DNA from: a virus
Direction: 5' to 3' (one strand)
DNA length: 14,426 nucleotides
UHGV virus genome: UHGV-0061697
Shown piece by piece: positions 3,919 through 14,364 of the stretch (position 1 is its first letter; each line of letters starts with the position of its first letter). The notes below the pieces were generated by a model. The model was not told where the DNA came from, did no database searches, and was given only the letters and a program-made list of their open reading frames with translations. The translations under genes and the position numbers were made by a program.

Positions 3919-4110
3919 TTACTCCCCGTTCACCGAAAATTCACGATAGAAACGTTTCCACATACGATAAGTCTGCGCAAATTGTTCACCACGAAACATC
4001 GCCTTCCTGGCCTTCATGTTTTCCTTGTGAGACTTTCGGTCTATGAACCAAAACCATTGATGGAACACACAAAGCAAGAGACACAAAGATAATATCCAAT
4101 CATTACCCAT
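3919..4110 (-). CDS. Small hydrophobic/basic protein (63 aa), start overlapping the repA stop
   Basis: Internal ATG of track ORF 3919..4227 (MGNDWILSLCLLLCVFHQWFWFIDRKSHKEN...). The track's longer version would overlap 125 nt of repA. One TM-like segment followed by a basic tail. Could be spurious. Confidence 0.35.
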   Translation of the reverse strand: MGNDWILSLCLLLCVFHQWFWFIDRKSHKENMKARKAMFRGEQFAQTYRMWKRFYREFSVNGE

Positions 4111-7100
4111 AGAAAGCGCCCTGCTCTTCGTAGCTGCATGAGCTATTCCCCGTAATGTATTCACGTAACCGCCGCAGCTCATTGCTGGAAAGGTGATCCA
4201 TGAACTCTGTGAGGTACAGGGATGCAAACGTCATAGCTATGCTGGCTGATGACCATGATGACATAGTGGCCAACTCCTCACTGGAAAGCGCACTCATCGC
4301 CCAGGACTCAGGTACAGCCACTGGCAACACGGCCAAAGCCTCAGAAATTACTGAATGAGGGGCGTTTTGAACCTGCTCGTTTGTGGATCGCGTTTTATCA
4401 TCCATATATATATTGAGATCCAAATCGCGATCCATTTCGATGGCTGTCTTCTCGGCTTTACGCGTTTTTAGGGTTAGGCCATCTTTCTGACGCTGAACAA
4501 GAATATCCAGCATAAATGCCGCTGATTCAGGCTCAACAAAACGCAAGGTTGGACGCTTATCGCCGTCTCTGCCGCGACGTTTACCTGTTTTAAGGCCAAG
4601 AGAGTCGCAAATGTTTTTAAACAACGCTTCCGGCACTTTAGGCTTCCCTTTTGGCGTCATAAAACCACCAATGTGCAGAACGTTATTCAACAGGTCACGG
4701 CGTTCGGCTGTCATGAGGTTATCTCGAGCGAATTTGAGACGCTCCTGAGTCGCCTCGCCGGTCATAGTCTCAGGGTTGATACCGCAGTCGATAAAGTACT
4801 GCCGGAGAGTTGCTGATTTAAGCGCATAGAAACCGCGCGCCCCGACTTCAACAGTAGGAGTAGCTTTTACCTTGTGATCGATTATTCCAGGGAATTTAGT
4901 TTTAAAGACATCATCAGCCTGCTCGCGAGTCATCGCGGTCACTACAAAATATTGCCACTGTCCCGCCTGACGGTATGCGTAGGTAAAATTGATGGCTGCT
5001 TCTTCCCGGTCGTAACGACGAGCTGTTACCTCATCTAAAAGCATTGTTTCATAGCGGCGAACTTTGTCTCGAGCACCATCGAAATAGAATTTCAGCGTGC
5101 CTTCTTCAACCGGTAGTTTCAGTTCGTTTTCAATATCCCAGCGGACAAGTTTTGCCTGTTCTTCAAGCGTCAGCGCGCGTTTTTTTAGCAGTTCTTCACG
5201 CTCTGATTCTTGTGGAGTTTCTGTATTGAGGTGCAGATCCAGTGTCTGTTCCCACACAATATCCCGCGCTTCTTTACGCAGATCTTTACCGATATCATTC
5301 GCAGCATAATCGGTGGCCAGCGGTGATACCTTATAACCGTCGCTGTGCATGATGCAGATCATGTTGCTGGCGTAGTCGTTACGCGCAGTCGCTTCAATTG
5401 CGGCTGCTTTAATTTTCATCCTGGTAAAGTCGGTATTGGCCACCCCCATTGATATACGGTCGCCATCGAAAACGACATCCGTCAGTTCACCGTTCATACC
5501 TGCGGTAGCAAGCAATGCCTGGGCGAATGCTCGTTCTATTTTTTGCGGGTCAGTTTCACGTTTTGCACGAGCTTTATCAAAGCCGATAATAAATTCTTTT
5601 GCTGTACGGTCGCGGCGTAGCATTTGCACTGCGTCGCTGGGTACAACTTCACCACAGAACATGCCGAAATGACGGTCAAAATGTTTTTGCTCAATCGACA
5701 CGCCGGATGAAATAGACGGGCTATAAATCAGGCCGTCGTATTTTTTGACCATCTTTTTCGGTTGATTGGTAAATGCTTCAACTTCTGGCTCTGGTTTGTT
5801 TTTCTGGTTTACACACAGAAATTTCTTACCAGGAAAATGCATTCTCAGGGTGGCTGTCACATCTTCTGCAAAGGTGGAGCTGTCGGTGGCCAACATGATT
5901 TTTTCGCCATCCGATACAGCTTTCACCACCTCGGTCATGATGCGATCTTTTTCTGTATAAAAAACCCGGATTGGCTCACCTGTTTCGCGGTTGCGAACAT
6001 CAACAGGTAATTCAATTACGTGGATCTGCAGCCATGCCGGTAAACCTAGTTCTTCACGGCGTTTCATAGCCAGTTCAGCCAGGTCAACCAGTAGATCGTT
6101 CGCATCAGCATCCACCATGATTGGGTGTTGTTCCGTTCTGGCCAGCGCGTCAATTAGCGTATTGAATACAGCAACCGGGTTTTCCATAGCCCGACCGGAA
6201 AGAACGGCACGTAGCCCTTGCGTGGCCTCGTCAAAGCCAAAATAGTCGTGCTGGCGCATCAACGGTTGCCAGCAGTTTTTAACAATCGAGTTTATGCAGA
6301 TGGTCAGTTTACTGGCGTATGGAGCCATTTCCTGATAGCCAGGGTCCTGATAGTGCAGGATATCGGCTTTTACACCTTTTCCTTCTGTCATCATTTCCCA
6401 CAGGCCACCAATAAGGGAGACACGGTGAGCAACAGAGATACCACGTTCTGAGCTATGCATTAACGGTCGTAACAATCCAGTAGATTTGCCGGAACCCATA
6501 CCAGCACGGACGATGACTATCCCCTGTAGTGATTGCACGTACTTCAGGACATCATCGGTCATTACCGAAGTTTCAAAACGCTTATAGGTGATATGTTGAG
6601 GGCGTTTATTGGGATCAGTTATGCGTTCGCTGAAAGAGCGCGGAGCCTGGGCAATACGGCACTTTTTATTCAGGCGACGGGCAATGTGGTCTTTTACCGT
6701 AGCACGATAGATATTTTCCAGTCCCATTTCACGCAGAACGATGCAGAACATGTTAAATAAATCTGACGGACTGTTAGGAACCGGGCAGGTTAGCATGCCA
6801 ATATCCACCGCTCTCAGCAGCTCTTTGGCAAAAGTACGACGGTTATCCCGCTTAATTGTCTTCAGGCGGTTGAGCGTCAGAGATAGCAAATCAGTACCGG
6901 TTTTCAGGCGGTTTGCTGTTGCAAATAGTTGACGTGCTGTTTCACGAAGTCCACGTAGTTTGTGCAGGTCGTTGAAGTCACTGCACTCCATTTGCGGATC
7001 GTCTTCAAAAGTTGGATAGACGCAGCGGACATCGTTGAATTTCGATAAGATTTCATAGCCAGTCCGCAGGCCGGTATTCCCTTTTCCTTCTGTGGCAGAT

Positions 7101-8098
7101 TTCCGGTCATTATCCAGTGCGCAGGTGATTTTTGCCGCCGGGTACATGTTTACCAGTTGTTCCACAACATGAACCATGTTGTTAGCGGATACAGCGACAA
7201 CCACAGCGTCAAAGCGTTTATCTTTTTTCGTGGCAAGCCAGATGGATGCACCAGTAGCAAAACCTTCTGTAACAGCGATGTTTTGCGCCCCTTTCAGCTC
7301 ACCGATAACAAAGCAGGCACCGACGAAATCGCCGCTGGTTACTGCGCTGGTCTGGTATTTCCCACCTTGTTTGTCGATTCGCTGCCAACCCACAATACGA
7401 CCATCATAACGACCGTCCAGGTGAGCCAGAGGGATAGCCATATATGTGGTTGGCCCCCGGCTCCATTTCGCACTGTCGTGACTGGTCACGCGACGCACAT
7501 CACATGAACTAAAAACGTCACGAATACCTTTTTTAATCGCATATGGCCATGAGCCGTCTTCAGCCTGAGCATGTTCCCACGCGCTGTGGAATGCCAGCCA
7601 TCCCAGCAAACGTTCATGGTCCATTTGGTTGTTTTTCAGGTCATTAATTCGTTTTTGTTCTTCACGGCGACGACGTGCTTCGGCCTGACGTTCTATTCTT
7701 TCCCGTTCTTCTTCCGGTTGTGCGACCACGGTCGCATTATTCCGTTGTTGCTCACGGCGATATTCAGAAAACAGGAAGGAGAAACCGCTCCATGAGCCAG
7801 CATCGCTGCCTTTATGGACGAAGTTAATGAACGGGTAATCAATCCCTTTGCTGTGTTCCAGCCTGGAGTAAATTTCTACGCGTCCTTTCAGGCTCTTTTC
7901 GAGAGCTTCTGGAGATGTTTTATTGTATGAAGAGTAACGCTCAACCCCCCCGCGAGGGTTGAGTTGGATGTTGTCGGAACAGGCAGGCCAGTTGATACCA
8001 GCCATCTGTGCCAGCTCGGTTAGTTCATCCCGTGCTGCTTCAATTAGCGAGAACGGATCGCTGCCAAAGCGATCCGCATAGAAATCGTTTAATGTCAT
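4103..8098 (-). CDS. repA: Replication protein RepA (multidomain primase-helicase, P4 alpha / N15 RepA family), 1331 aa
   Basis: Single 1331-aa ORF; N15 RepA is about 1320 aa. Walker A motif GMGSGKST is present (RAGMGSGKSTGLL). Position between the immA-like operon and cB matches N15 organisation. Recognition is from memory, not search. Confidence 0.88.
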   Translation of the reverse strand: MTLNDFYADRFGSDPFSLIEAARDELTELAQMAGINWPACSDNIQLNPRGGVERYSSYNKTSPEALEKSLKGRVEIYSRLEHSKGIDYPFINFVHKGSDAGSWSGFSFLFSEYRREQQRNNATVVAQPEEERERIERQAEARRRREEQKRINDLKNNQMDHERLLGWLAFHSAWEHAQAEDGSWPYAIKKGIRDVFSSCDVRRVTSHDSAKWSRGPTTYMAIPLAHLDGRYDGRIVGWQRIDKQGGKYQTSAVTSGDFVGACFVIGELKGAQNIAVTEGFATGASIWLATKKDKRFDAVVVAVSANNMVHVVEQLVNMYPAAKITCALDNDRKSATEGKGNTGLRTGYEILSKFNDVRCVYPTFEDDPQMECSDFNDLHKLRGLRETARQLFATANRLKTGTDLLSLTLNRLKTIKRDNRRTFAKELLRAVDIGMLTCPVPNSPSDLFNMFCIVLREMGLENIYRATVKDHIARRLNKKCRIAQAPRSFSERITDPNKRPQHITYKRFETSVMTDDVLKYVQSLQGIVIVRAGMGSGKSTGLLRPLMHSSERGISVAHRVSLIGGLWEMMTEGKGVKADILHYQDPGYQEMAPYASKLTICINSIVKNCWQPLMRQHDYFGFDEATQGLRAVLSGRAMENPVAVFNTLIDALARTEQHPIMVDADANDLLVDLAELAMKRREELGLPAWLQIHVIELPVDVRNRETGEPIRVFYTEKDRIMTEVVKAVSDGEKIMLATDSSTFAEDVTATLRMHFPGKKFLCVNQKNKPEPEVEAFTNQPKKMVKKYDGLIYSPSISSGVSIEQKHFDRHFGMFCGEVVPSDAVQMLRRDRTAKEFIIGFDKARAKRETDPQKIERAFAQALLATAGMNGELTDVVFDGDRISMGVANTDFTRMKIKAAAIEATARNDYASNMICIMHSDGYKVSPLATDYAANDIGKDLRKEARDIVWEQTLDLHLNTETPQESEREELLKKRALTLEEQAKLVRWDIENELKLPVEEGTLKFYFDGARDKVRRYETMLLDEVTARRYDREEAAINFTYAYRQAGQWQYFVVTAMTREQADDVFKTKFPGIIDHKVKATPTVEVGARGFYALKSATLRQYFIDCGINPETMTGEATQERLKFARDNLMTAERRDLLNNVLHIGGFMTPKGKPKVPEALFKNICDSLGLKTGKRRGRDGDKRPTLRFVEPESAAFMLDILVQRQKDGLTLKTRKAEKTAIEMDRDLDLNIYMDDKTRSTNEQVQNAPHSVISEALAVLPVAVPESWAMSALSSEELATMSSWSSASIAMTFASLYLTEFMDHLSSNELRRLREYITGNSSCSYEEQGAFYG
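4384..4434. other. Candidate internal replication-origin element inside the 3' end of repA: 9-bp inverted repeat TGGATCGCG / CGCGATCCA around an AT-rich spacer with (AT)5 and three GATC sites
   Basis: Read directly: tggatcgcg (4384-4392) and cgcgatcca (4426-4434) flank ttttatcatccatatatatattgagatccaaat. N15-type replicons are reported to carry ori within the 3' part of repA (established knowledge). The function here is inferred. Confidence 0.3.
7477..7490. repeat. 14-bp palindromic motif CGTGACTGGTCACG (copy 2 of 3), inside the repA coding sequence
   Basis: Exact 14-mer identical to 13483-13496 and reverse complement of 2797-2810. Confidence 0.5.
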
Positions 8099-8221
8099 TT
8101 TTTAGCCATTCCATGCGAATTATGTTTTTTCGGGTTGAAAAAATCCGCAGGAGCAGCCACAATAAACGCATCTTGAATTGACGGAATCCGTCGCGTTACT
8201 GTGGCTGCTTCCTGAAAAGGA

Positions 8222-8249
8222 CCCGAGTTTGCCGACTCGGGTTTTTTTT
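8222..8249. terminator. Intrinsic-terminator-like hairpin between cB and repA (stem CCCGAGT/ACTCGGG, 6-nt loop, T8 on plus strand; A-run and UCCUUUU on minus strand)
   Basis: Stem 8222-8228 / 8235-8241 and T-run 8242-8249 read directly. Canonical on the plus strand, weaker in the minus (cB to repA) direction. Possibly bidirectional or an attenuator of read-through into repA. Confidence 0.45.
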
Positions 8250-8343: not shown

Positions 8344-8940
8344 TCATCTACCCTCAACCATGAATGATTTGATCGTTCCGACTATTTGGTGAACAAATTC
8401 AAGATCGCTTTTCCTGAAGATGGCGCGTTGTGAGTTTGTTCCATCCAGATAGTAATTTTCATCATCAAAACGGGCCAGGCGCTGGATAGTGATATTTCCT
8501 GCAGTATCACGAACCAGAACATCCTCGCCGGGGACCAGTTCCAGCGCAGAATCGACCAGGAGAAAATCGCCTGGCTGATAGTTTCCCTGCGTAAGATTGC
8601 TGATAGTTAACGCATACACAGTATTGCGCTGGCTGATGAATGGCAGGAATCGCTCAGTATTTGGAACCTGTCCCGGCTTCCACTCTTCATCCGGCCCACT
8701 TTCAGTTGTGCCAATAACAGGAATGCGATCAGGGTCATATTCTGTCCCATATAGCACCCAATGCACTGGCTTGCGTAAGCACTTAGCCAGGGCAATACCT
8801 ATCTCCAGTGACGGCATTACGTCGCCACGTTCTAAGTTTTGGACGCCTGCTATAGAGATATCGACAGCCTCAGCAACTTCTCGCAACGTCAGCTTCATCT
8901 CTAAACGGCGTGCTTTCAGTCGTTCGCCTCGTGTTTTCAT
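8344..8940 (-). CDS. cB: Prophage repressor CB (N-terminal HTH, C-terminal LexA/CI-like S24 fold), 198 aa
   Basis: ORF from track. N-terminal HTH LTLREVAEAVDISIAGVQNLERG; C-terminal GDFLLVD...GEDVLVRD...ITIQRL pattern typical of the S24-like domain. Divergent from a cro-like gene across an operator-bearing intergenic region. Confidence 0.85.
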   Translation of the reverse strand: MKTRGERLKARRLEMKLTLREVAEAVDISIAGVQNLERGDVMPSLEIGIALAKCLRKPVHWVLYGTEYDPDRIPVIGTTESGPDEEWKPGQVPNTERFLPFISQRNTVYALTISNLTQGNYQPGDFLLVDSALELVPGEDVLVRDTAGNITIQRLARFDDENYYLDGTNSQRAIFRKSDLEFVHQIVGTIKSFMVEGR

Positions 8941-9031: not shown

Positions 9032-9253
9032 ATGAAACCAGAAGAACTTATTCGCCATTTTGGCAGTGTAGAAAAAGCAGCGGCAGGGGTAGGTGTAACA
9101 CCCGGAGCTGTTTACCAATGGTTAACCGCTGGAGAGATTCCTTCATTGCGGCAAAGCGATATTGAAGTTCGTACTGCTTACAAGCTGAAGAGTGACTTTA
9201 CAACTCGGCGGGTAAAGCAGTCGATTAAGGAGAGTCGTAAGCGTGGAGCTTGA
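9032..9253 (+). CDS. cro: Cro-like HTH regulator (73 aa)
   Basis: Internal ATG of track ORF 9005..9253 (the track start is TTG). MKPEELIRHFGSVEKAAAGVGVTPGAVYQWL is a Cro/CI-type HTH. TATAAT at 9020-9025 sits 6 nt before the ATG, with no Shine-Dalgarno, which suggests a leaderless mRNA. Confidence 0.7.
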   Translation: MKPEELIRHFGSVEKAAAGVGVTPGAVYQWLTAGEIPSLRQSDIEVRTAYKLKSDFTTRRVKQSIKESRKRGA

Positions 9254-9938
9254 ATATATACGCAGCTGCGTCTCTACGGCATTGGCTGATGTTCATTATC
9301 GCCAGCGTGGCATTCTGGAGGTCCAGCTTGAGCAGATGCGTCTCGGTAGATCAGGACGGTTTAACAATAAACCAGTCCGGTCAATCAGTGTGGGGGATGA
9401 TAACTCATACGAAGTGTCCGTTCCTGCTGAGCCGGTTAGATTCCATCAGGGGAAAACATTTAAACAATCATCAATGTTGCTCACTGATATTGATTTTCAG
9501 AGCGCCAGCTGGCGCAGGGCTATTGGTCAGTTGAATAACGAGGAATCAGCCTGGCTTTATTATTGCTACGGATGCAAGCCTGATTACAACAATGATGTGA
9601 TTGTTTGTCAGTGGTTATGGCTTCATTCGGGGGGCGGCTTTAAAAAAATGAAGGCCTCCACGAAAAAAGCCATGCGGAAATTGATTTATTACGCGGCACA
9701 ACAGGTTAAATCAGAACTTACGTGTGCTGAGGCAGTTGATGAGAGAGAACAGGACAGGCATCTGAGTTTTCTACTGAATATATCTATTGATAGCTGGAGA
9801 CAAGATTATAAAGAACGCTGGCTTTTAATTAAGTCGCGATGTCTGAGCTTAAATCGAACTGCATTATTAAATGCGGCGGAGAAGCGCAGTGAAATCATCA
9901 AACGCCATCGGGCAGGAAGTGCCATTCTGCCTTTGTAA
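9243..9938 (+). CDS. Putative Q-like late antiterminator (231 aa); assignment positional
   Basis: ORF from track with GTG start and AAGGAG 10 nt upstream. It follows cro as Q does in the N15 immB region (cB, cro, Q). I cannot confirm family membership from sequence alone. Confidence 0.4.
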   Translation: MELEYIRSCVSTALADVHYRQRGILEVQLEQMRLGRSGRFNNKPVRSISVGDDNSYEVSVPAEPVRFHQGKTFKQSSMLLTDIDFQSASWRRAIGQLNNEESAWLYYCYGCKPDYNNDVIVCQWLWLHSGGGFKKMKASTKKAMRKLIYYAAQQVKSELTCAEAVDEREQDRHLSFLLNISIDSWRQDYKERWLLIKSRCLSLNRTALLNAAEKRSEIIKRHRAGSAILPL

Positions 9939-9945
9939 ACAAGTT

Positions 9946-10191
9946 ATGTTCAGGAAACCGTCGAAGCCAGAATTAAGGTATTCGGGGGTAAGAAATGAAT
10001 ATGTTATCTGGTGTCCAACTTGTGGTTACAGGACACGACCAGATAGTAATAAGCAGTCTGTAATTGCCGATTGGTATTTATCAAATCAGCCAGGTAATAA
10101 GCATATAGAAAATCTTTGGATTAAGCGTTACTTGGAAATCAGAGAGGGTGCGACCGTGGTCGCACAAGAAAATGAAAATAACGCCATTTAA
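9946..10191 (+). CDS. Small protein with a single CPxCG zinc-ribbon-like motif (81 aa); weak resemblance to Lar-type restriction alleviation proteins
   Basis: Internal ATG of track ORF 9871..10191, chosen because it starts just after the Q-like stop. Motif VIWCPTCGY...ADWYLSNQ. Only one CxxC pair, so the Lar assignment is tentative. Confidence 0.4.
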   Translation: MFRKPSKPELRYSGVRNEYVIWCPTCGYRTRPDSNKQSVIADWYLSNQPGNKHIENLWIKRYLEIREGATVVAQENENNAI

Positions 10192-10375
10192 GCAGGGGCC
10201 GATGACGCATGATGAAGCAGAGCGTCTTTCAGATACTTATCGGCGGCGTGGTAAGAAAGTTCTGGTTGTTCGTTCTGATTTTTTAGGTGATGGATATTGT
10301 GTTTATGTTCATTTACCTGAATCAGAAAGAACGCCAAAACCATCCAGAACATATCAACAGAAAATTTGGGTATAG
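10148..10375 (+). CDS. Hypothetical small protein (start uncertain: GTG 10148, ATG 10172 or ATG 10205)
   Basis: ORF from track; overlaps the previous gene in another frame; no clear RBS for any of the three starts. Confidence 0.3.
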   Translation: MRPWSHKKMKITPFKQGPMTHDEAERLSDTYRRRGKKVLVVRSDFLGDGYCVYVHLPESERTPKPSRTYQQKIWV

Positions 10376-10398
10376 ATAAACGTTGAGGAGAATTATTC

Positions 10399-10998
10399 GT
10401 GACTAATCAGATTATTTACGACAGGAAACGGTCTGATGTAATGATTGACCTTGAAACAATGGGTACTAACACATGTGCTCCAATTGTTTCTATCGGGGCA
10501 GTGTTTTTTTCTCCAGAAAGTGAGGAATTAGGTCCTACTTTTTATGTGCCAGTGAATCTCAGAAGCTCGATGTTGAATGGTGGTATCGCCGATGGTGATA
10601 CCATTTTATGGTGGTTGAAACAGAGCAAGGAAGCCAGAGCCGCTATTTGTACTAATGATGCCCTTGATATTAAGGATGCACTTTTTGAATTATCACACTT
10701 TATTACTTGCCATGCATGTAATTTAAAAAAGTTGAAAGTATGGGGAAATGGAGCAACGTTCGATAATGTAATTTTACGCGGTGCTTATGAGCGCGTTGGC
10801 TTAGCCTGTCCGTGGGAATATTTTAATGATCAGGATGTTCGAACAATCGTTAATCTTGGTCAGTTTATTGGTTTTAATCCTAAAAAAGATATGCCATTTG
10901 ATGGCGAACGACACAATGCCCTGGCTGATGCTATTCATCAGGCTAAATATGTATCCGCAATTTTCTCCCGTCTTGTAAAAGGGCAAGGAGAATCGTAA
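10399..10998 (+). CDS. DEDDh-family 3'-5' exonuclease (DnaQ/RNase T-like fold), 199 aa
   Basis: Exo motifs read from the translation: MIDLETMG (exo I, D/E), WGNGATFD (exo II), HNALADAIHQAKY (exo III, H and D). GTG start with GAGGAG 8 nt upstream. Confidence 0.75.
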   Translation: MTNQIIYDRKRSDVMIDLETMGTNTCAPIVSIGAVFFSPESEELGPTFYVPVNLRSSMLNGGIADGDTILWWLKQSKEARAAICTNDALDIKDALFELSHFITCHACNLKKLKVWGNGATFDNVILRGAYERVGLACPWEYFNDQDVRTIVNLGQFIGFNPKKDMPFDGERHNALADAIHQAKYVSAIFSRLVKGQGES

Positions 10999-11417
10999 TG
11001 GCAAAGGCTTTTACACCAGAACAGAGGGAAGAACTGAATAAACAAATTGTGGAACTCGTGCGCCTGAATGGACGAGGAACGGTTAGGCAACTTGCGGATG
11101 AAACTGGTATTAGCCGGTGTGCTGTTAGTCGTTTATCAAGAGAGCTTGCTGCCAGTGGTGATTTGTATATCTCTGGCTCCGGGATATTTCTGTCTGCACA
11201 AGCACGCAAGGACTGGCAAAACGCCCGTAAAAAACTATCAAGAGTAAAGCCGAAGAAATCGGTAGTGGTTGATCCAGACCTTATCTGGTCATTACCTGAC
11301 GGAGAAATACGTCGTTACGACAGGCGCTTGAACATGATTTGTCACGATTGCCGGAAAAGTGAAGTTATGCAGCGTGTGCTGGCTTTTTATCAGGGAAATT
11401 TACAGGAGGTGGCGTAG
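10998..11417 (+). CDS. Hypothetical protein with probable helix-turn-helix (139 aa)
   Basis: ORF from track; HTH-like segment TVRQLADETGISRCAVSRLSRELA. Start overlaps the previous stop (TAATG) with AAGGAG upstream. Confidence 0.55.
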   Translation: MAKAFTPEQREELNKQIVELVRLNGRGTVRQLADETGISRCAVSRLSRELAASGDLYISGSGIFLSAQARKDWQNARKKLSRVKPKKSVVVDPDLIWSLPDGEIRRYDRRLNMICHDCRKSEVMQRVLAFYQGNLQEVA

Positions 11418-11707
11418 TGAATATCGACACCACGATAACGATCGATACGGCCCTAAATATCGGTCTGGCACTTCTCGGTTGGTTTTACATCATGTCCCGT
11501 GCATGGCGATGGCTTGGTTCCATTTTTCTAAAACAGTGGAAAAAACGGCGCAAACAGGAGAGACGCCAGAAAGCGTTAGAGGCGTTCTATGACGCATTTG
11601 AACTTAGCCGCATTGAGCCTGGCACAACAGCCAGGATAGCGACAAAAGGCGACCTGATGATAGTGATGTTCCGACAGGAGAGAGCAGAGAAAGGGGAATC
11701 AGCATGA
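11417..11707 (+). CDS. Small membrane protein (96 aa; one N-terminal TM helix then a highly basic segment)
   Basis: ORF from track; GTG start overlapping the upstream stop (TAGTG) with GGAGGTGG upstream. TM segment ALNIGLALLGWFYIM followed by KQWKKRRKQERRQK. Confidence 0.45.
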   Translation: MNIDTTITIDTALNIGLALLGWFYIMSRAWRWLGSIFLKQWKKRRKQERRQKALEAFYDAFELSRIEPGTTARIATKGDLMIVMFRQERAEKGESA

Positions 11708-12438
11708 AATTTTCCAAATTTTCTGAGTTGGTGAATCGTATTTTGTCCAACAACCACAGCCATCGTCGCGATATGGATGTAACAATCGTTATTCATTCGC
11801 CTGGCAGCATTGGTTCAACACCCTCAGTTGAGGTTCAGTCAATTCACGCTGGTTTTGATTGGGATTCCGGGAAAGTGCTGATTTTCCCAGCACAGCCACT
11901 GACCACGCTAACACCAGAACAGATTACTGATATTACTGATAGTGTGCGCAAAGGTCAGTCCTGGCACGCATATCAGGAATACAAGAAGCATAAAGAGCAG
12001 TTGGAAAAATTGTCGATTGAACTGGATGCTGCAAAACAGCGCGTAGCAGAACTGGAAGCCAAACCTGTAAGCCAAACTTACAAGTTAACTTTTGAGCAAT
12101 GGCTGGAACAGCAGCATGACAAAATTGATGTTGATTGTGGATGTGTAAGTACTGAAATGTTTATGCACTGGATAAGGGTCGCGTATGAGGCTGGCAACTA
12201 TCCGGTAACTCCGGATGGTTGGATAAGCTGTAGTGAGCGAATGCCTGAAAAGGGCGAGAACGTGCTTATTTCGGTGAATTTCGATAGCTCTCTGGTTGAA
12301 CCGCTAATATGCTCCGCACGCTATACCGGAAGCACCTTTCGGAGAGGAGATGCAACGATTAAGCCGGGTAATGGTATTGAGCAAGCAACTCACTGGATGC
12401 CGCTACCAGAACCTCCGCAGGAGTCGAAGAGTGAATAA
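11704..12438 (+). CDS. Hypothetical protein with C-terminal DUF551-like domain (244 aa)
   Basis: ORF from track. The C-terminal segment PVTPDGWISCSERMPEKGENVLISV...ATHWMPLPEPP resembles the small phage DUF551 domain as I remember it. ATGA overlap with the upstream gene. Confidence 0.55.
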   Translation: MKFSKFSELVNRILSNNHSHRRDMDVTIVIHSPGSIGSTPSVEVQSIHAGFDWDSGKVLIFPAQPLTTLTPEQITDITDSVRKGQSWHAYQEYKKHKEQLEKLSIELDAAKQRVAELEAKPVSQTYKLTFEQWLEQQHDKIDVDCGCVSTEMFMHWIRVAYEAGNYPVTPDGWISCSERMPEKGENVLISVNFDSSLVEPLICSARYTGSTFRRGDATIKPGNGIEQATHWMPLPEPPQESKSE

Positions 12439-12652
12439 AGCAGAGTTATTTCAGAAAATATCGGCTCTCGCGACTGAATGCCACGCTATAGCATCTGAGC
12501 TTGATGTTGGCGATGAACGAACCGAGATGTTCGAAATATACAGTGTGCTGCGCAATCTCTGTCGGCGTGGCTACGCCACTCAAGTAGGGCGAATGACTAA
12601 CCCACTACTCTCATCCTGTGATGAGGATGACTCGGATGAGGATGACGAATGA
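12431..12652 (+). CDS. Hypothetical small protein with acidic C-terminus (about 73 aa)
   Basis: Track ORF 12350..12652 trimmed to the GTG at 12431, which has AGGAG 7 nt upstream; the longer version overlaps the DUF551 gene extensively. C-terminus DEDDSDEDDE. Confidence 0.4.
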   Translation: MNKAELFQKISALATECHAIASELDVGDERTEMFEIYSVLRNLCRRGYATQVGRMTNPLLSSCDEDDSDEDDE

Positions 12653-13179
12653 TGCATAAAGCAGTAGCCGGTGAGTTTCAGAAGGAAGTCGATAATACTA
12701 CCGTTCTATTGGACGATATTTTAAGCATTCTCGCGTTGCTTGAGGCTGGCGATTGGTCAGAACATTGCACTAAAACAGAGCTAGGCGGTCGGCTTGAAAG
12801 AGAGATTACACGACTTATTGGTGATGCGCAGGAAGCCACTGTCACTGGCTATGAGTTAATCGCTGAAGCCTGGCGTTTGATGGATGGACAAGACCCTAAA
12901 ACCAGCGATTGGCATAGCAAGGCTTCGAAGTATTTAAATTCCAATATTGTAGAAAAAGTTGATGATGACCGTATTGAGGCCGTTAAGGCTGTGTTGCGTA
13001 GGCTGGCTGGCAACTCTCCGGTAACTCCGGATGGTCATGTTCAGTTTTCTGTTTCACTTCCTGCAGCGTTTGGTGGAGATAAATATTTTATTGATGGTGT
13101 ATTTCAACCTTTGAGATATGAGCGTGACTGTGAAAGGGCGGTTGTGGCCGCTGGCGGTGTAGTTAATTGGGTTAAGTAA
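12649..13179 (+). CDS. Hypothetical protein (176 aa) sharing a 30-nt GN-x-PVTPDG segment with the DUF551-like gene
   Basis: ORF from track; ATGA overlap with the upstream gene. Confidence 0.5.
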   Translation: MMHKAVAGEFQKEVDNTTVLLDDILSILALLEAGDWSEHCTKTELGGRLEREITRLIGDAQEATVTGYELIAEAWRLMDGQDPKTSDWHSKASKYLNSNIVEKVDDDRIEAVKAVLRRLAGNSPVTPDGHVQFSVSLPAAFGGDKYFIDGVFQPLRYERDCERAVVAAGGVVNWVK

Positions 13180-13262
13180 TTTTCAGGAGGATTTATGGCG
13201 CTGACACCGGCAGAACGGCAAAGGAGACGCAGGACTGGATTCTAGAACCTGACGAGTTACGT

Positions 13263-13487
13263 ATGTTGGGGGAAATTTGTGTATTGCGTAGACCAGGGCG
13301 AGTTCCATATTCGGAGAACGAAGTCATTGGTTTGCTGATCAGGAAAAACTATAAGGAGCTGCAGAAGCAGCTATCTACTACTTGCCCGCGATGTGGTCAA
13401 AAAATGCCTGTTTCAGAATGCATTTTTGATGGCGAAGGGTCATGCCACCTTACAACCACGAGGCTGAAACTTGCGCTCAAAGCGTGA
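13263..13487 (+). CDS. Hypothetical small Cys-containing protein (74 aa; CPRCG...C...CH); possibly the 3' part of a disrupted gene
   Basis: ORF from track. No Shine-Dalgarno before the ATG, whereas a strong AGGAGG precedes a 16-codon ORF (13195-13245) in another frame just upstream. Confidence 0.35.
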   Translation: MLGEICVLRRPGRVPYSENEVIGLLIRKNYKELQKQLSTTCPRCGQKMPVSECIFDGEGSCHLTTTRLKLALKA

Positions 13488-13505: not shown

Positions 13506-13748
13506 ATGGATAAAAAGGCATTGCTTTTTGAAATGATACGAAAACGGAGCGAAAAGAGCTTTTCTGATGGTGGTGATGGGTTTGTTTTCGCTTCGATGCT
13601 TGCTTTTGATGTTGGGTTAAATAGCAGAATTGTTAAAAGGATGCTTGATTCTGCTGTCCGTACTGGACTTCTTGAGAAAGTTGATCGTGGCATAGGGAGA
13701 GAGCATAAGTATCGGGCCACACAGCAGTTTACGCAGTTAATTCATTGA
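13506..13748 (+). CDS. Hypothetical protein (80 aa)
   Basis: ORF from track; GGAGGG RBS 4-9 nt upstream of the ATG. Confidence 0.5.
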   Translation: MDKKALLFEMIRKRSEKSFSDGGDGFVFASMLAFDVGLNSRIVKRMLDSAVRTGLLEKVDRGIGREHKYRATQQFTQLIH

Positions 13749-13830: not shown

Positions 13831-14034
13831 ATGTCTGAAGCAGCCGTATCAACTCTTGAACAACTCGATTCAAATTTAAGAGATATTGACGCCGTTCTGG
13901 ATCTGGTTAGCGTCACCCTGGCTTCTCCAGAAGCCAGCCTACATATTGGTGAGGTTTCACGACTCATCAACATGTCGCGAGAGATTGCCCAGCATTGTCA
14001 GAAAACTATCGCTGTTGAGCGTTCACATCATTGA
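13831..14034 (+). CDS. Small protein (67 aa) downstream of the LexA-box promoter; candidate SOS-induced antirepressor (AntC-like role)
   Basis: ORF from track (MSEAAVSTLEQLDSNLRDIDAVLDLVS...). The functional call is inferred from the LexA box and from N15 biology, not from sequence similarity. Confidence 0.45.
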   Translation: MSEAAVSTLEQLDSNLRDIDAVLDLVSVTLASPEASLHIGEVSRLINMSREIAQHCQKTIAVERSHH

Positions 14035-14076: not shown

Positions 14077-14364
14077 TTAATAAACAGCGCGAATATCGAT
14101 GGTTGCGCCGCAGGCATGAGCATATTTAGCCAAAGTTTTCATACTTGCCCCTAAAGGATTGCTTTCCAGGCGGCTGATGGCTGACGGTCGCAACCCCATT
14201 CGTTCAGCCAGAGCTGATTTCGTTAAACCTGCTCTTTCCCTCATTTCGTATAACATTTCGACCATCTCCAGCTCTTTGTCGGCCTCTTCATATCCTTTGA
14301 CGGCTTCTGGAGTGTTGAGGAGTTTTTCTTTTACTTCGTTAAACGGGATGCCTTTCGCTTTCAT
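14077..14364 (-). CDS. HigA-like antitoxin, XRE-family HTH (95 aa)
   Basis: ORF from track; HTH GLTKSALAERMGLRPSAISRLE. The ATG overlaps the stop of an upstream minus-strand ORF (TGATG) and has AAGGAG upstream. Confidence 0.65.
   Translation of the reverse strand: MKAKGIPFNEVKEKLLNTPEAVKGYEEADKELEMVEMLYEMRERAGLTKSALAERMGLRPSAISRLESNPLGASMKTLAKYAHACGATIDIRAVY

Follow-up and report, generated by a model that had tools for sequence, protein, structure and literature searches.

Downstream of the antiterminator gene Q, the 14,426-nt stretch of the UHGV virus genome UHGV-0061697 analyzed here (the window) carries a tightly packed run of small genes, one of which encodes a DEDDh exonuclease, and this raises the question of what such a run does for its host element. 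The initial annotation presented it as a cassette of early genes that might serve anti-defence or host takeover, with an exonuclease that could degrade host nucleic-acid signals or act in recombination. Our analysis shows that the cassette is an ordinary, already sequenced accessory portion, the distal part of the cro-Q early-right operon in N15-type phage-plasmids. Taking the identity of the block, its expression and the role of the exonuclease together, we regard this reading as moderately probable; our certainty is high for the identity of the block, moderate for the mode of expression, and lower for the role of the exonuclease.

Judged by its sequence, the window is part of an N15-type telomere phage-plasmid (a linear plasmid-prophage) of Escherichia coli, an identity drawn from the gene order, from matches to plasmids and phages, and from the similarity of Q to N15 gp40. 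The order protelomerase, RepA, CB-like repressor, Cro, Q agrees with that of annotated linear plasmids and phages (97% to 99% identity). A 637-amino acid open reading frame (ORF) at 66-1979 occupies the position at which a protelomerase is annotated in the near-identical plasmid pCAVP367-48, RepA (1331 amino acids, 4103-8098) and a helix-turn-helix (HTH)/S24 repressor (198 amino acids, 8344-8940) are encoded on the minus strand, and cro precedes the Q antiterminator gene (9243-9938, plus strand; PF06323, E = 1.2e-81), after which the cassette starts. With N15 gp40, the "late transcription activator", Q shares 65% identity. The cassette region is matched over its full length and at 97% to 99% identity by linear or linear-type E. 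coli plasmids of 27 to 62 kb, and at approximately 98% identity across 78% of its length by the Escherichia phages PhiR46_1 and YDC107_1. The same gene order is annotated in the relatives, followed by a RelE/HTH pair, a methylase, lysis genes, terminase and portal; in one relative, L001 (97.6% identical), methylase, holin and lysozyme genes lie downstream of the cassette. The N15-type context, the centromere site in the Zn-ribbon gene described below, and the existing public annotation of the block had gone unrecognised in the initial annotation. In addition, Q of the window has 231 amino acids versus 236 in PhiR46_1 and pCAVP367-48, the difference being an in-frame loss of 15 nt (DFLVA).

To which extent the block is shared among N15-like phages was read from 60 viral loci of IMG/VR that carry the gene for a Lar-like Zn-ribbon protein, the first cassette gene after Q. 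These loci were gathered with an alignment of four Lar-like proteins, because a single-sequence query of viral contigs recovered near-identical loci only, and were annotated by tblastn. Q lies directly upstream of the Lar-like gene in all 60 loci, and a DEDDh exonuclease is encoded at most 4 kb downstream in 58 of them, 39 exonucleases being RNase_T/epsilon-like and 19 Rv2179c/DexA-like. A small protein of the N15 "Orf QD1" family is present in 56 loci, and in 55 of these 56 its gene stands directly 5' of the exonuclease gene, whichever exonuclease family is found there. Among the named phages, a fusion of an RNase_T domain with a genuine Lar domain (47.5 bits vs a cut-off of 28.6) makes up N15 gp41, phiKO2 gp39 is RNase_T-like, and PY54 gene 51 is Rv2179c-like. 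The genes past the exonuclease vary (DUF977, DUF4752 and Ea22-type genes in the window, gp42 to gp45 in N15), and in related loci the operon ends with a gp46-like regulator and two small genes. The conserved backbone, common to nearly all N15-like phages, is made of Q, the Lar-like Zn ribbon with its IR2 site, a 57/67-amino acid protein, and a DEDDh exonuclease. The post-exonuclease genes form a mosaic of lambdoid ea/nin-type modules, which are swapped through recombination at short, conserved linkers.

Two boundaries within this backbone had to be corrected. The start of the Zn-ribbon gene had been placed at 9946, with which the first CxC knuckle of the protein would be lost; the gene is most likely the plus-strand ORF at 9871-10191, which encodes 106 amino acids in another frame than Q and overlaps the 3' end of Q by 68 nt. 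Start 9871 is preferred because phrog_6795 ("Lar-like restriction alleviation protein", E = 1.5e-45, residues 5-101) aligns from residue 5 and because the C20/C22 knuckle, encoded upstream of 9946, is invariant. The protein has the four cysteines of a zinc ribbon (C20, C22, C48 and C51), all invariant in four telomere-phage homologues that include those of N15, phiKO2 and PY54, and PY54 ORF44, an annotated Lar-like protein, is likewise encoded in overlap with Q. The second correction concerns a conserved small gene that had been overlooked between the Zn ribbon and the exonuclease. This QD1-type gene lies on the plus strand at 10172-10375 or 10202-10375 and encodes 67 or 57 amino acids (phrog_1212, E = 6e-21); PGAP places its start at 10202, and the N-terminal extension "FxQGPM" read from ATG 10172 is conserved in divergent homologues and forms a strand (residues 3-11) in the AlphaFold2 (AF2) model. 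N15 has intact counterparts of both ORFs between its genes 40 and 41, in 412 nt left unannotated in the GenBank record: the ORF at 11654-11974 encodes a Lar-like protein of 106 amino acids that is 79% identical, and the ORF at 11985-12158 encodes a homologue of the small QD1-type protein.

From the exonuclease gene onwards the genes overlap. Direct reading and a script agreed with the initial annotation on six genes between 10399 and 13179 joined by five successive stop/start overlaps. The exonuclease gene ends with TAA at 10996-10998 and overlaps by 1 nt with the ATG of the DUF977 gene at 10998 (TAATG), which in turn ends with TAG at 11415-11417 and overlaps by 1 nt with the GTG of the DUF4752 gene at 11417 (TAGTG). 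The TGA of the DUF4752 gene (11705-11707) and the ATG of the DUF551 gene (11704) share an ATGA with a 4-nt overlap, the TAA of the DUF551 gene (12436-12438) and the GTG of the gene for an acidic 73-amino acid protein (12431) give an 8-nt overlap, and a second ATGA with a 4-nt overlap joins the TGA of this gene (12650-12652) to the ATG of the last one, encoding 176 amino acids (12649). A purine-rich Shine-Dalgarno (SD)-like motif stands 5 to 9 nt before every start (GAGGAG, AAGGAG, AGGAGG, AAGGGG, GGAG and GAGGA). The first four overlaps, of 1, 1, 4 and 8 nt, are also annotated by PGAP in L001; the 176-amino acid gene is missing from the gene table of that record. Stop/start overlaps combined with SD-like motifs are consistent with translational coupling across the cassette, re-initiation itself being putative. 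Since overlapping junctions of this kind are typical in phage operons, the pattern is real but not unusual. Pfam and PHROG profiles agreed with the initial gene identities, the six products being the PF16473 exonuclease, the DUF977, DUF4752 and DUF551 proteins, the acidic 73-amino acid protein and the 176-amino acid protein.

We next consider when the block would be expressed. Its description as early genes after Q agrees with the predicted architecture, in which cro and Q share an operon and the late promoter lies far downstream. Between Q and approximately 14.0 kb, no promoter or strong terminator was predicted, only 4 promoter-like sites being counted vs 10.6 expected, and the stems inside the block found by the promoter/terminator scan were weak (5-6 bp only). 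The next gene begins before the stop codon of Q, and the interval behind Q is coding throughout, with no promoter/terminator pair predicted by the scan. The late promoter of phage lambda directly follows Q. By contrast, in the GenBank record of N15 genes 51 and 52 are separated by -35 and -10 signals and a terminator, approximately 5.4 kb past Q, and the equivalent site is labelled "putative late promoter" in the phiKO2 record; Q presumably acts on this site. The promoter-like hexamers and the terminator of N15 and phiKO2 are kept in L001 at 15561-15646; the late promoter site was read in these relatives and is expected approximately 0.9 kb past the end of the window. A lambda-like late promoter right after Q was rejected from the scan together with the N15 and phiKO2 annotation. 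The plus-strand gene run stops at 14034, where it faces a convergent HTH/RelE toxin-antitoxin pair. Altogether, the overlapped Q stop, the lack of a promoter/terminator pair after Q, and the late promoter approximately 5.4 kb downstream support the early assignment, and because no promoters or terminators are predicted inside the cassette we infer that it is transcribed from the cro promoter.

The 3' part of the Lar-like gene contains a second element of the N15 type. An 18-bp palindrome at 10148-10165, GTGCGACCGTGGTCGCAC, is an exact 18-mer match to the IR2-type SopB centromere (partition) site, with 0 matches expected by chance, and its flanks resemble those of N15 IR2; the sequences of the N15 centromeres IR1 to IR4 are printed in Table 4 of PMC7205306. 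A second copy of the palindrome lies in repA at 7720-7737 and corresponds to IR1 (consensus GTGCGACC(G/A)(T/C)GGTCGCAC), and the relatives carry additional ones, located shortly before the late promoter and close to the lysis region. The site downstream of Q is also present in N15 and L001, phiKO2 marks a "putative plasmid partitioning site" at the equivalent place, and IR2 was found in or at the Lar-like gene in 51 of the 60 related loci. In 2008, Ravin, Rech and Lane reportedly showed that late expression is facilitated by IR2 and IR3, with Q located approximately 6 kb from its promoter. On that view, the cassette would be the spacer between IR2 and IR3.

The assignment of the third backbone gene to the DEDDh exonucleases was firmly confirmed by PF16473 (E = 3.4e-68, 229 bits vs a cut-off of 27, profile positions 2-176 of 177) and by phrog_255 ("exonuclease", E = 4.6e-81). 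This predicted 3'-5' exonuclease of the Rv2179c-like/T4 DexA-like type is encoded on the plus strand at 10399-10998 and has two candidate starts, GTG 10399 with a strong GAGGAG SD motif (199 amino acids) and ATG 10441, the choice of PGAP (185 amino acids); the catalytic domain is unaffected by this choice. The catalytic residues are all present, D17 and E19 in DLET, D122 in FDNV, and H172 and D177 in RHNALAD; those of DexA include D7, D119, H186 and D191 (PMC12153337). The only solved relative found by sequence was the 227-amino acid exodeoxyribonuclease of PDB entries 8KEL and 8KEN (E = 1e-7), the aligned residues of which agree with T4 DexA. DexA is a 3'-5' DNA exonuclease that functions in host-DNA scavenging and in recombination-dependent intron homing (PMC12153337). 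Closer to the window, PY54 gene 51 is 61% identical to the exonuclease; N15 gp43, of similar size, has no similarity to it and was rejected as a homologue.

Members of this exonuclease family occur in 725 phage records, both temperate and virulent, and their surroundings bear on the function. In mEpX2 the order is Rad52-like annealase, single-stranded DNA-binding protein (SSB), exonuclease homologue (56% identical) and Abc2; in ST64B the homologue stands beside Ea22-like genes and xis/int; PY54-type phages carry an RdgC-like gene within the same operon as the exonuclease; and in a Vibrio phage an RNaseT-type exonuclease adjoins SSB and a single-strand annealing protein (SSAP) recombinase and is mutated in retron-escape mutants. 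Taken together, these contexts speak for an enzyme that acts on DNA 3' ends in recombination or repair, and less for one that degrades signal molecules. The suggestion of the initial annotation that the enzyme acts in recombination is the better-supported half of its statement. The other half, degradation of host nucleic-acid signals or cyclic oligonucleotides, is unsupported; the closest characterised relative, T4 DexA, is a 3'-5' DNA exonuclease. DEDDh exonucleases require a free 3' end, and cyclic oligonucleotides are therefore unlikely substrates. Our preferred reading is that the enzyme is of the DexA-like type and processes DNA ends by a predicted 3'-5' DNA exonuclease activity. PY54 stays viable when ORF46, a gene of the same operon, carries an insertion (PMC10612081), in line with a dispensable function.

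These observations can be assembled into a working model. Infection, or inactivation of the CB-type repressor, would allow transcription to start at the cro promoter and to cover the whole block in a single transcript; ribosomes would re-initiate at the overlaps, so that the small proteins would be co-produced ahead of the late genes; and the DexA-like exonuclease would trim free 3' DNA ends, serving recombination, repair or DNA-end processing in early lytic development, although laboratory growth would not require it. Host restriction or exclusion may be blunted by the Lar-like and Ren-like proteins of the cassette, a step of the model that is weakly founded.

Several points weigh against this model. 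A weak internal promoter may exist, or the genes may be expressed in the lysogen. The 3'-5' polarity of the enzyme is not that of the normal partner of single-strand annealing recombinases, and no recognisable annealase is encoded beside the exonuclease gene in the window element. RNA could be a substrate, as the founding member Rv2179c is named a 3'-5' exoribonuclease in Pfam. The presence of a DEDDh exonuclease in 58 of 60 N15-like loci hints at a role more specific than "accessory". Finally, a 2025 paper describes an E. coli DexA homologue, EcD, that protects from T4, which points to exclusion and not to recombination (PMC12153337).

The strongest competing explanation, which we nevertheless consider unlikely, is that the early genes serve to disarm host immunity, with the Lar-like protein acting against type I restriction, the DUF977 protein against Rex-type exclusion, the 73-amino acid protein as a mimic or inhibitor, and the exonuclease by destroying retron multicopy single-stranded DNA, reverse-transcriptase cDNA or linear oligonucleotide signals. 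Part of this proposal, made in the initial annotation for the cassette as a whole, is echoed by the labels of remote PHROG families, since the Zn-ribbon protein belongs to the Lar-like phrog_6795 and the DUF977 protein to phrog_142 ("Ren-like exclusion protein", E = 1e-41). However, the Zn-ribbon protein missed both curated Lar cut-offs (Pfam Lar, PF14354, 21.1 vs 28.6 bits; TIGR03655, 19 vs 39.6). N15 gp41 joins a bona fide Lar domain to a DEDDh exonuclease, yet a direct comparison revealed no kinship between this Lar domain and the Lar-like protein (E = 0.32). Likewise, the BLASTP similarity between the DUF977 protein and lambda Ren was confined to 20 C-terminal residues (E = 9e-6).

The acidic 73-amino acid protein (12431-12652, plus strand; phrog_4220, E = 9e-42) would suit a mimic by its isoelectric point (pI 4.29) and by its AF2 model (pLDDT 82), a helical hairpin (helices 3-23 and 28-44) followed by a disordered Asp/Glu tail. 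Its homologues are all named "hypothetical", and Foldseek gave no match at E < 2 in PDB. The idea that it is a DNA mimic or has a known anti-restriction fold is therefore unsupported. PADLOC, run on ten proteins, returned marginal and generic hits only (DEDDh, E = 0.0016; CasR; SP_VI), so a known defence system is not supported either. The early position of the genes and the fact that a DEDDh exonuclease decides the outcome of retron defence in a Vibrio phage would both agree with an anti-defence function, but that exonuclease sensitises its phage, escape mutants being those that lose it, which is not counter-defence. Cyclic oligonucleotides, by general enzymology, offer no free 3' end, and a search of the literature on anti-defence roles of phage DEDDh exonucleases found nothing for the family of this exonuclease.

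A different possibility, to which we give a rather small chance, is that the Lar-like protein, the QD1-type protein and the exonuclease form one functional module specific to N15-like telomere phages. The AF2 model of the QD1-type protein (pLDDT 81.6) has a beta-alpha-beta-beta core and a low-confidence, flexible C-terminal tail; in a Foldseek search with this model, no PDB match reached E < 0.7, and the sole significant match was N15 Orf QD1. The QD1-type homologues came only from Enterobacteriaceae contigs of approximately 40 to 55 kb, and all are named "hypothetical". The last residues of this tail (C-terminus at 10327-10375 of the window), (T/I)(Y/F)QQ(K/R)(I/M)W, are among the most conserved positions of the family, both Gln residues and the Trp being invariant or nearly so in 44 homologues. 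The tail resembles the Qxx(L/M)(F/W) pentapeptide that binds the sliding clamp, an idea that is purely pattern-based. Within such a module, the C-terminal peptide of the QD1-type protein might, for example, hold the exonuclease at replication forks or at the DNA ends of the linear replicon, or regulate it there.

It is improbable, in our view, that the exonuclease mediates an HREX-type superinfection exclusion in which the prophage enzyme degrades the modified (5-hydroxymethylcytosine-type) DNA of incoming T-even phages, as reported for EcD. According to PMC12153337, E. coli is protected from T4 by plasmid-borne EcD, which digests the DNA of this phage, and DexA homologues occur commonly in Escherichia; the window exonuclease is such a homologue, its catalytic residues are complete, and it has an Asp (D164) at the position of DexA D169. 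EcD (HAK9828821.1) is set apart by a published residue signature, in which D90 is replaced by Ala and the equivalents of W152 and D169 are retained. In an alignment with DexA that is remote, the window exonuclease departs from this signature, with an Asp (D93) at the D90 position instead of the Ala that defines the "dimer-only" type of EcD, and with a Phe at the W152 position. Moreover, its gene belongs to the repressed early-right operon and has no predicted promoter of its own, which makes expression in the lysogen doubtful, and the same slot is filled in N15 and phiKO2 by an unrelated RNase_T-type exonuclease.

Equally improbable is an RNA exonuclease that trims the 3' ends of phage or host transcripts or of small RNAs, as Mycobacterium tuberculosis Rv2179c does. 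PF16473 is named after this 3'-5' exoribonuclease, and RefSeq homologues of the window protein are annotated "3'-5' exoribonuclease". Against these names stand the only solved-structure relative found by sequence, T4 DexA, which acts on DNA, the gene contexts, which concern DNA metabolism (SSB, annealase, Abc2, RdgC-like), and the interchangeable slot partner in phiKO2, which is described as DNA polymerase III epsilon-like. Last, the position of the cassette between Q and the lysis genes (read in L001), like that of stx in Stx phages, could suggest Q-dependent late "moron" genes with a late promoter and qut site right after Q, as in lambda and Stx phages, but the overlapped Q stop, the coding interval devoid of a predicted promoter/terminator pair, and the N15/phiKO2 pair lying beyond the convergent toxin-antitoxin genes largely refute this reading, which we hold to be barely credible.

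The genes past the exonuclease are the mosaic ea/nin-type modules introduced above. The DUF977 winged-HTH protein (10998-11417, plus strand) matches PF06163 (E = 3.9e-29) and weakly several HTH and winged-HTH families. It is followed on the same strand by the 96-amino acid DUF4752 protein (11417-11707; PF15944, E = 8e-43; phrog_667), which had been called a membrane protein; its best 19-residue Kyte-Doolittle mean, 1.48 at residues 7-25, is borderline only, and what stands of the proposal is that the N-terminus may serve as a membrane anchor, with a basic stretch behind it. The Ea22-like modular protein of 244 amino acids (11704-12438, plus strand; phrog_6026, phrog_368 and phrog_60) consists of an N-terminal part, a coiled-coil-like middle, an "AGNYPVTPDG" linker and the C-terminal DUF551 domain (PF04448, E = 3e-24, residues 172-239), and its homologue in PhiR46_1 is annotated Ea22. 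The 176-amino acid EaA/Ea22-type protein (12649-13179, plus strand; phrog_20174, E = 2e-71 for residues 1-116 only; phrog_343) has the N-terminal domain of a 284-amino acid EaA-like family, an "AGNSPVTPDG" linker and a short C-terminal domain; in the 108-kb circular Escherichia phage PhiR41_1 its homologue has 284 amino acids and is annotated EaA. PDB sequence searches with the DUF551, 176-amino acid, 73-amino acid and DUF977 proteins gave nothing significant, and NCBIfam provided no named family for any protein, with the sub-threshold Lar match as the sole exception.

The two linkers reveal how this part of the cassette recombines. They are encoded by a 31-nt direct repeat, with one copy at 12189-12219 in the DUF551 gene and the other, 97% identical and 816 nt away, at 13005-13035 in the 176-amino acid gene, so that both proteins carry "AGN(Y/S)PVTPDG". 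The 816-bp segment, which comprises the DUF551 domain, the 73-amino acid gene and the N-terminal part of the 176-amino acid gene, is missing from many relatives, and a 219-amino acid protein of PhiR46_1 is an exact hybrid of the Ea22-like and 176-amino acid genes across the repeat. This exact hybrid indicates that the segment is a recombinational indel. PhiR41_1 carries the same gene string amid a run of Ea22/EaA-type genes. Parts of the cassette were matched in 3332 of 5426 complete E. coli genomes (61%), mostly at chromosomal positions, and the full arrangement was found in 6.

Beyond the cassette, a broken homologue of N15 gp46 (phrog_536, "transcriptional regulator") lies on the plus strand at 13195-13487, as a stub of 16 amino acids (13195-13245) and an ORF of 74 amino acids (13263-13487). 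Alignment with two intact relatives showed a 34-nt deletion with GGGA microhomology flanks that shifts the frame. The intact homologue in PhiR46_1 has 108 amino acids, and the window matches positions 36-114 of the phrog_536 profile only. Because of the frame-shifting deletion, the gp46 homologue is probably a pseudogene in the window element. Two plus-strand genes remain in the distal operon, one for a conserved 80-amino acid protein (13506-13748, phrog_13995) that follows the gp46 homologue in related loci, and one for a conserved 67-amino acid protein (13831-14034), the last ahead of the convergent toxin-antitoxin pair. Of this pair, an HTH_3 match lies on the minus strand at 14077-14364; in a relative, the HTH antitoxin and the RelE/ParE toxin are both encoded on that strand.

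Some observations concern the remainder of the window. On the minus strand, Rfam matches above the gathering score were obtained for C4 antisense RNA (2551-2637, 73.6 bits) and isrK (2663-2736, 62.5 bits); they adjoin icd/antirepressor-like genes, the counterpart of the anti-immunity (immB) region of N15. A strong terminator-like hairpin, with 16 pairs followed by a T-run, separates repA from the repressor gene (8214-8249, plus strand); a putative (bidirectional) terminator is annotated at this position in N15 and phiKO2. The protelomerase-like protein has a long acidic run of consecutive Glu residues near its C-terminus (window about 1690-1760). A tRNA scan found none in the window.

Public records already contain the block in annotated form, with identities of up to 99%; it agrees with the published N15-type architecture, and its parts are common in E. 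coli prophages. The useful outcome consists of annotation fixes, namely the Zn-ribbon start, the extra small gene, IR2, the broken regulator and the recombinational indel. A mildly new point is that the DEDDh exonuclease slot is near-universal and family-swappable, with the QD1-type gene directly before it in 55 of the 56 loci that have this small gene. If the Lar-like, QD1-type and exonuclease genes did form a functional unit, this would imply an unrecognised need for 3'-end trimming in linear plasmid-prophages and would offer a concrete test of the claim that E. coli DexA homologues are anti-T4 defences.

Among known systems, the cassette resembles several. Lar of the Rac prophage and Ren of lambda gave their names to the PHROG families of two of its proteins and are, like them, small early accessory proteins of lambdoid phages; however, the Lar-like protein is longer (106 amino acids) and stays sub-threshold in Pfam and NCBIfam, and the direct similarity of the DUF977 protein to Ren is confined to the 20-residue C-terminal motif. 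With T4 DexA and EcD, the exonuclease shares the Pfam-level family, the DEDDh catalytic residues and homology at E = 1e-7 over residues 13-126. It is only approximately 28% identical to T4 DexA, lacks the extra loops of that enzyme and has Phe for W152; furthermore, it is known from its sequence and belongs to a temperate phage-plasmid, the DNA of which is presumably unmodified. The exonucleases of lambdoid pL operons (mEpX2 gene 032 and ST64B sb30) are closer, at 56% to 66% identity and amid Ea22-like and other small early genes with overlapping junctions. They are nevertheless encoded in the pL operon near annealase, SSB and Abc2 or xis/int genes, whereas the window exonuclease is encoded in the pR operon after Q, in an annealase-free vicinity. 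The best counterparts are N15 genes 40-47, phiKO2 genes 38-47 and PY54 genes 43-56. N15 and phiKO2 differ by an RNase_T/epsilon-like exonuclease (fused to Lar in N15) in place of the Rv2179c/DexA-like one, all three have other modules between the exonuclease and the gp46 homologue, and this homologue is broken in the window. With all three, the window shares the order of cro, Q, a Lar-like ORF overlapping Q, IR2, QD1 and a DEDDh exonuclease, followed by variable small genes, a gp46-like regulator, a convergent RelE/HTH pair and a late promoter downstream.

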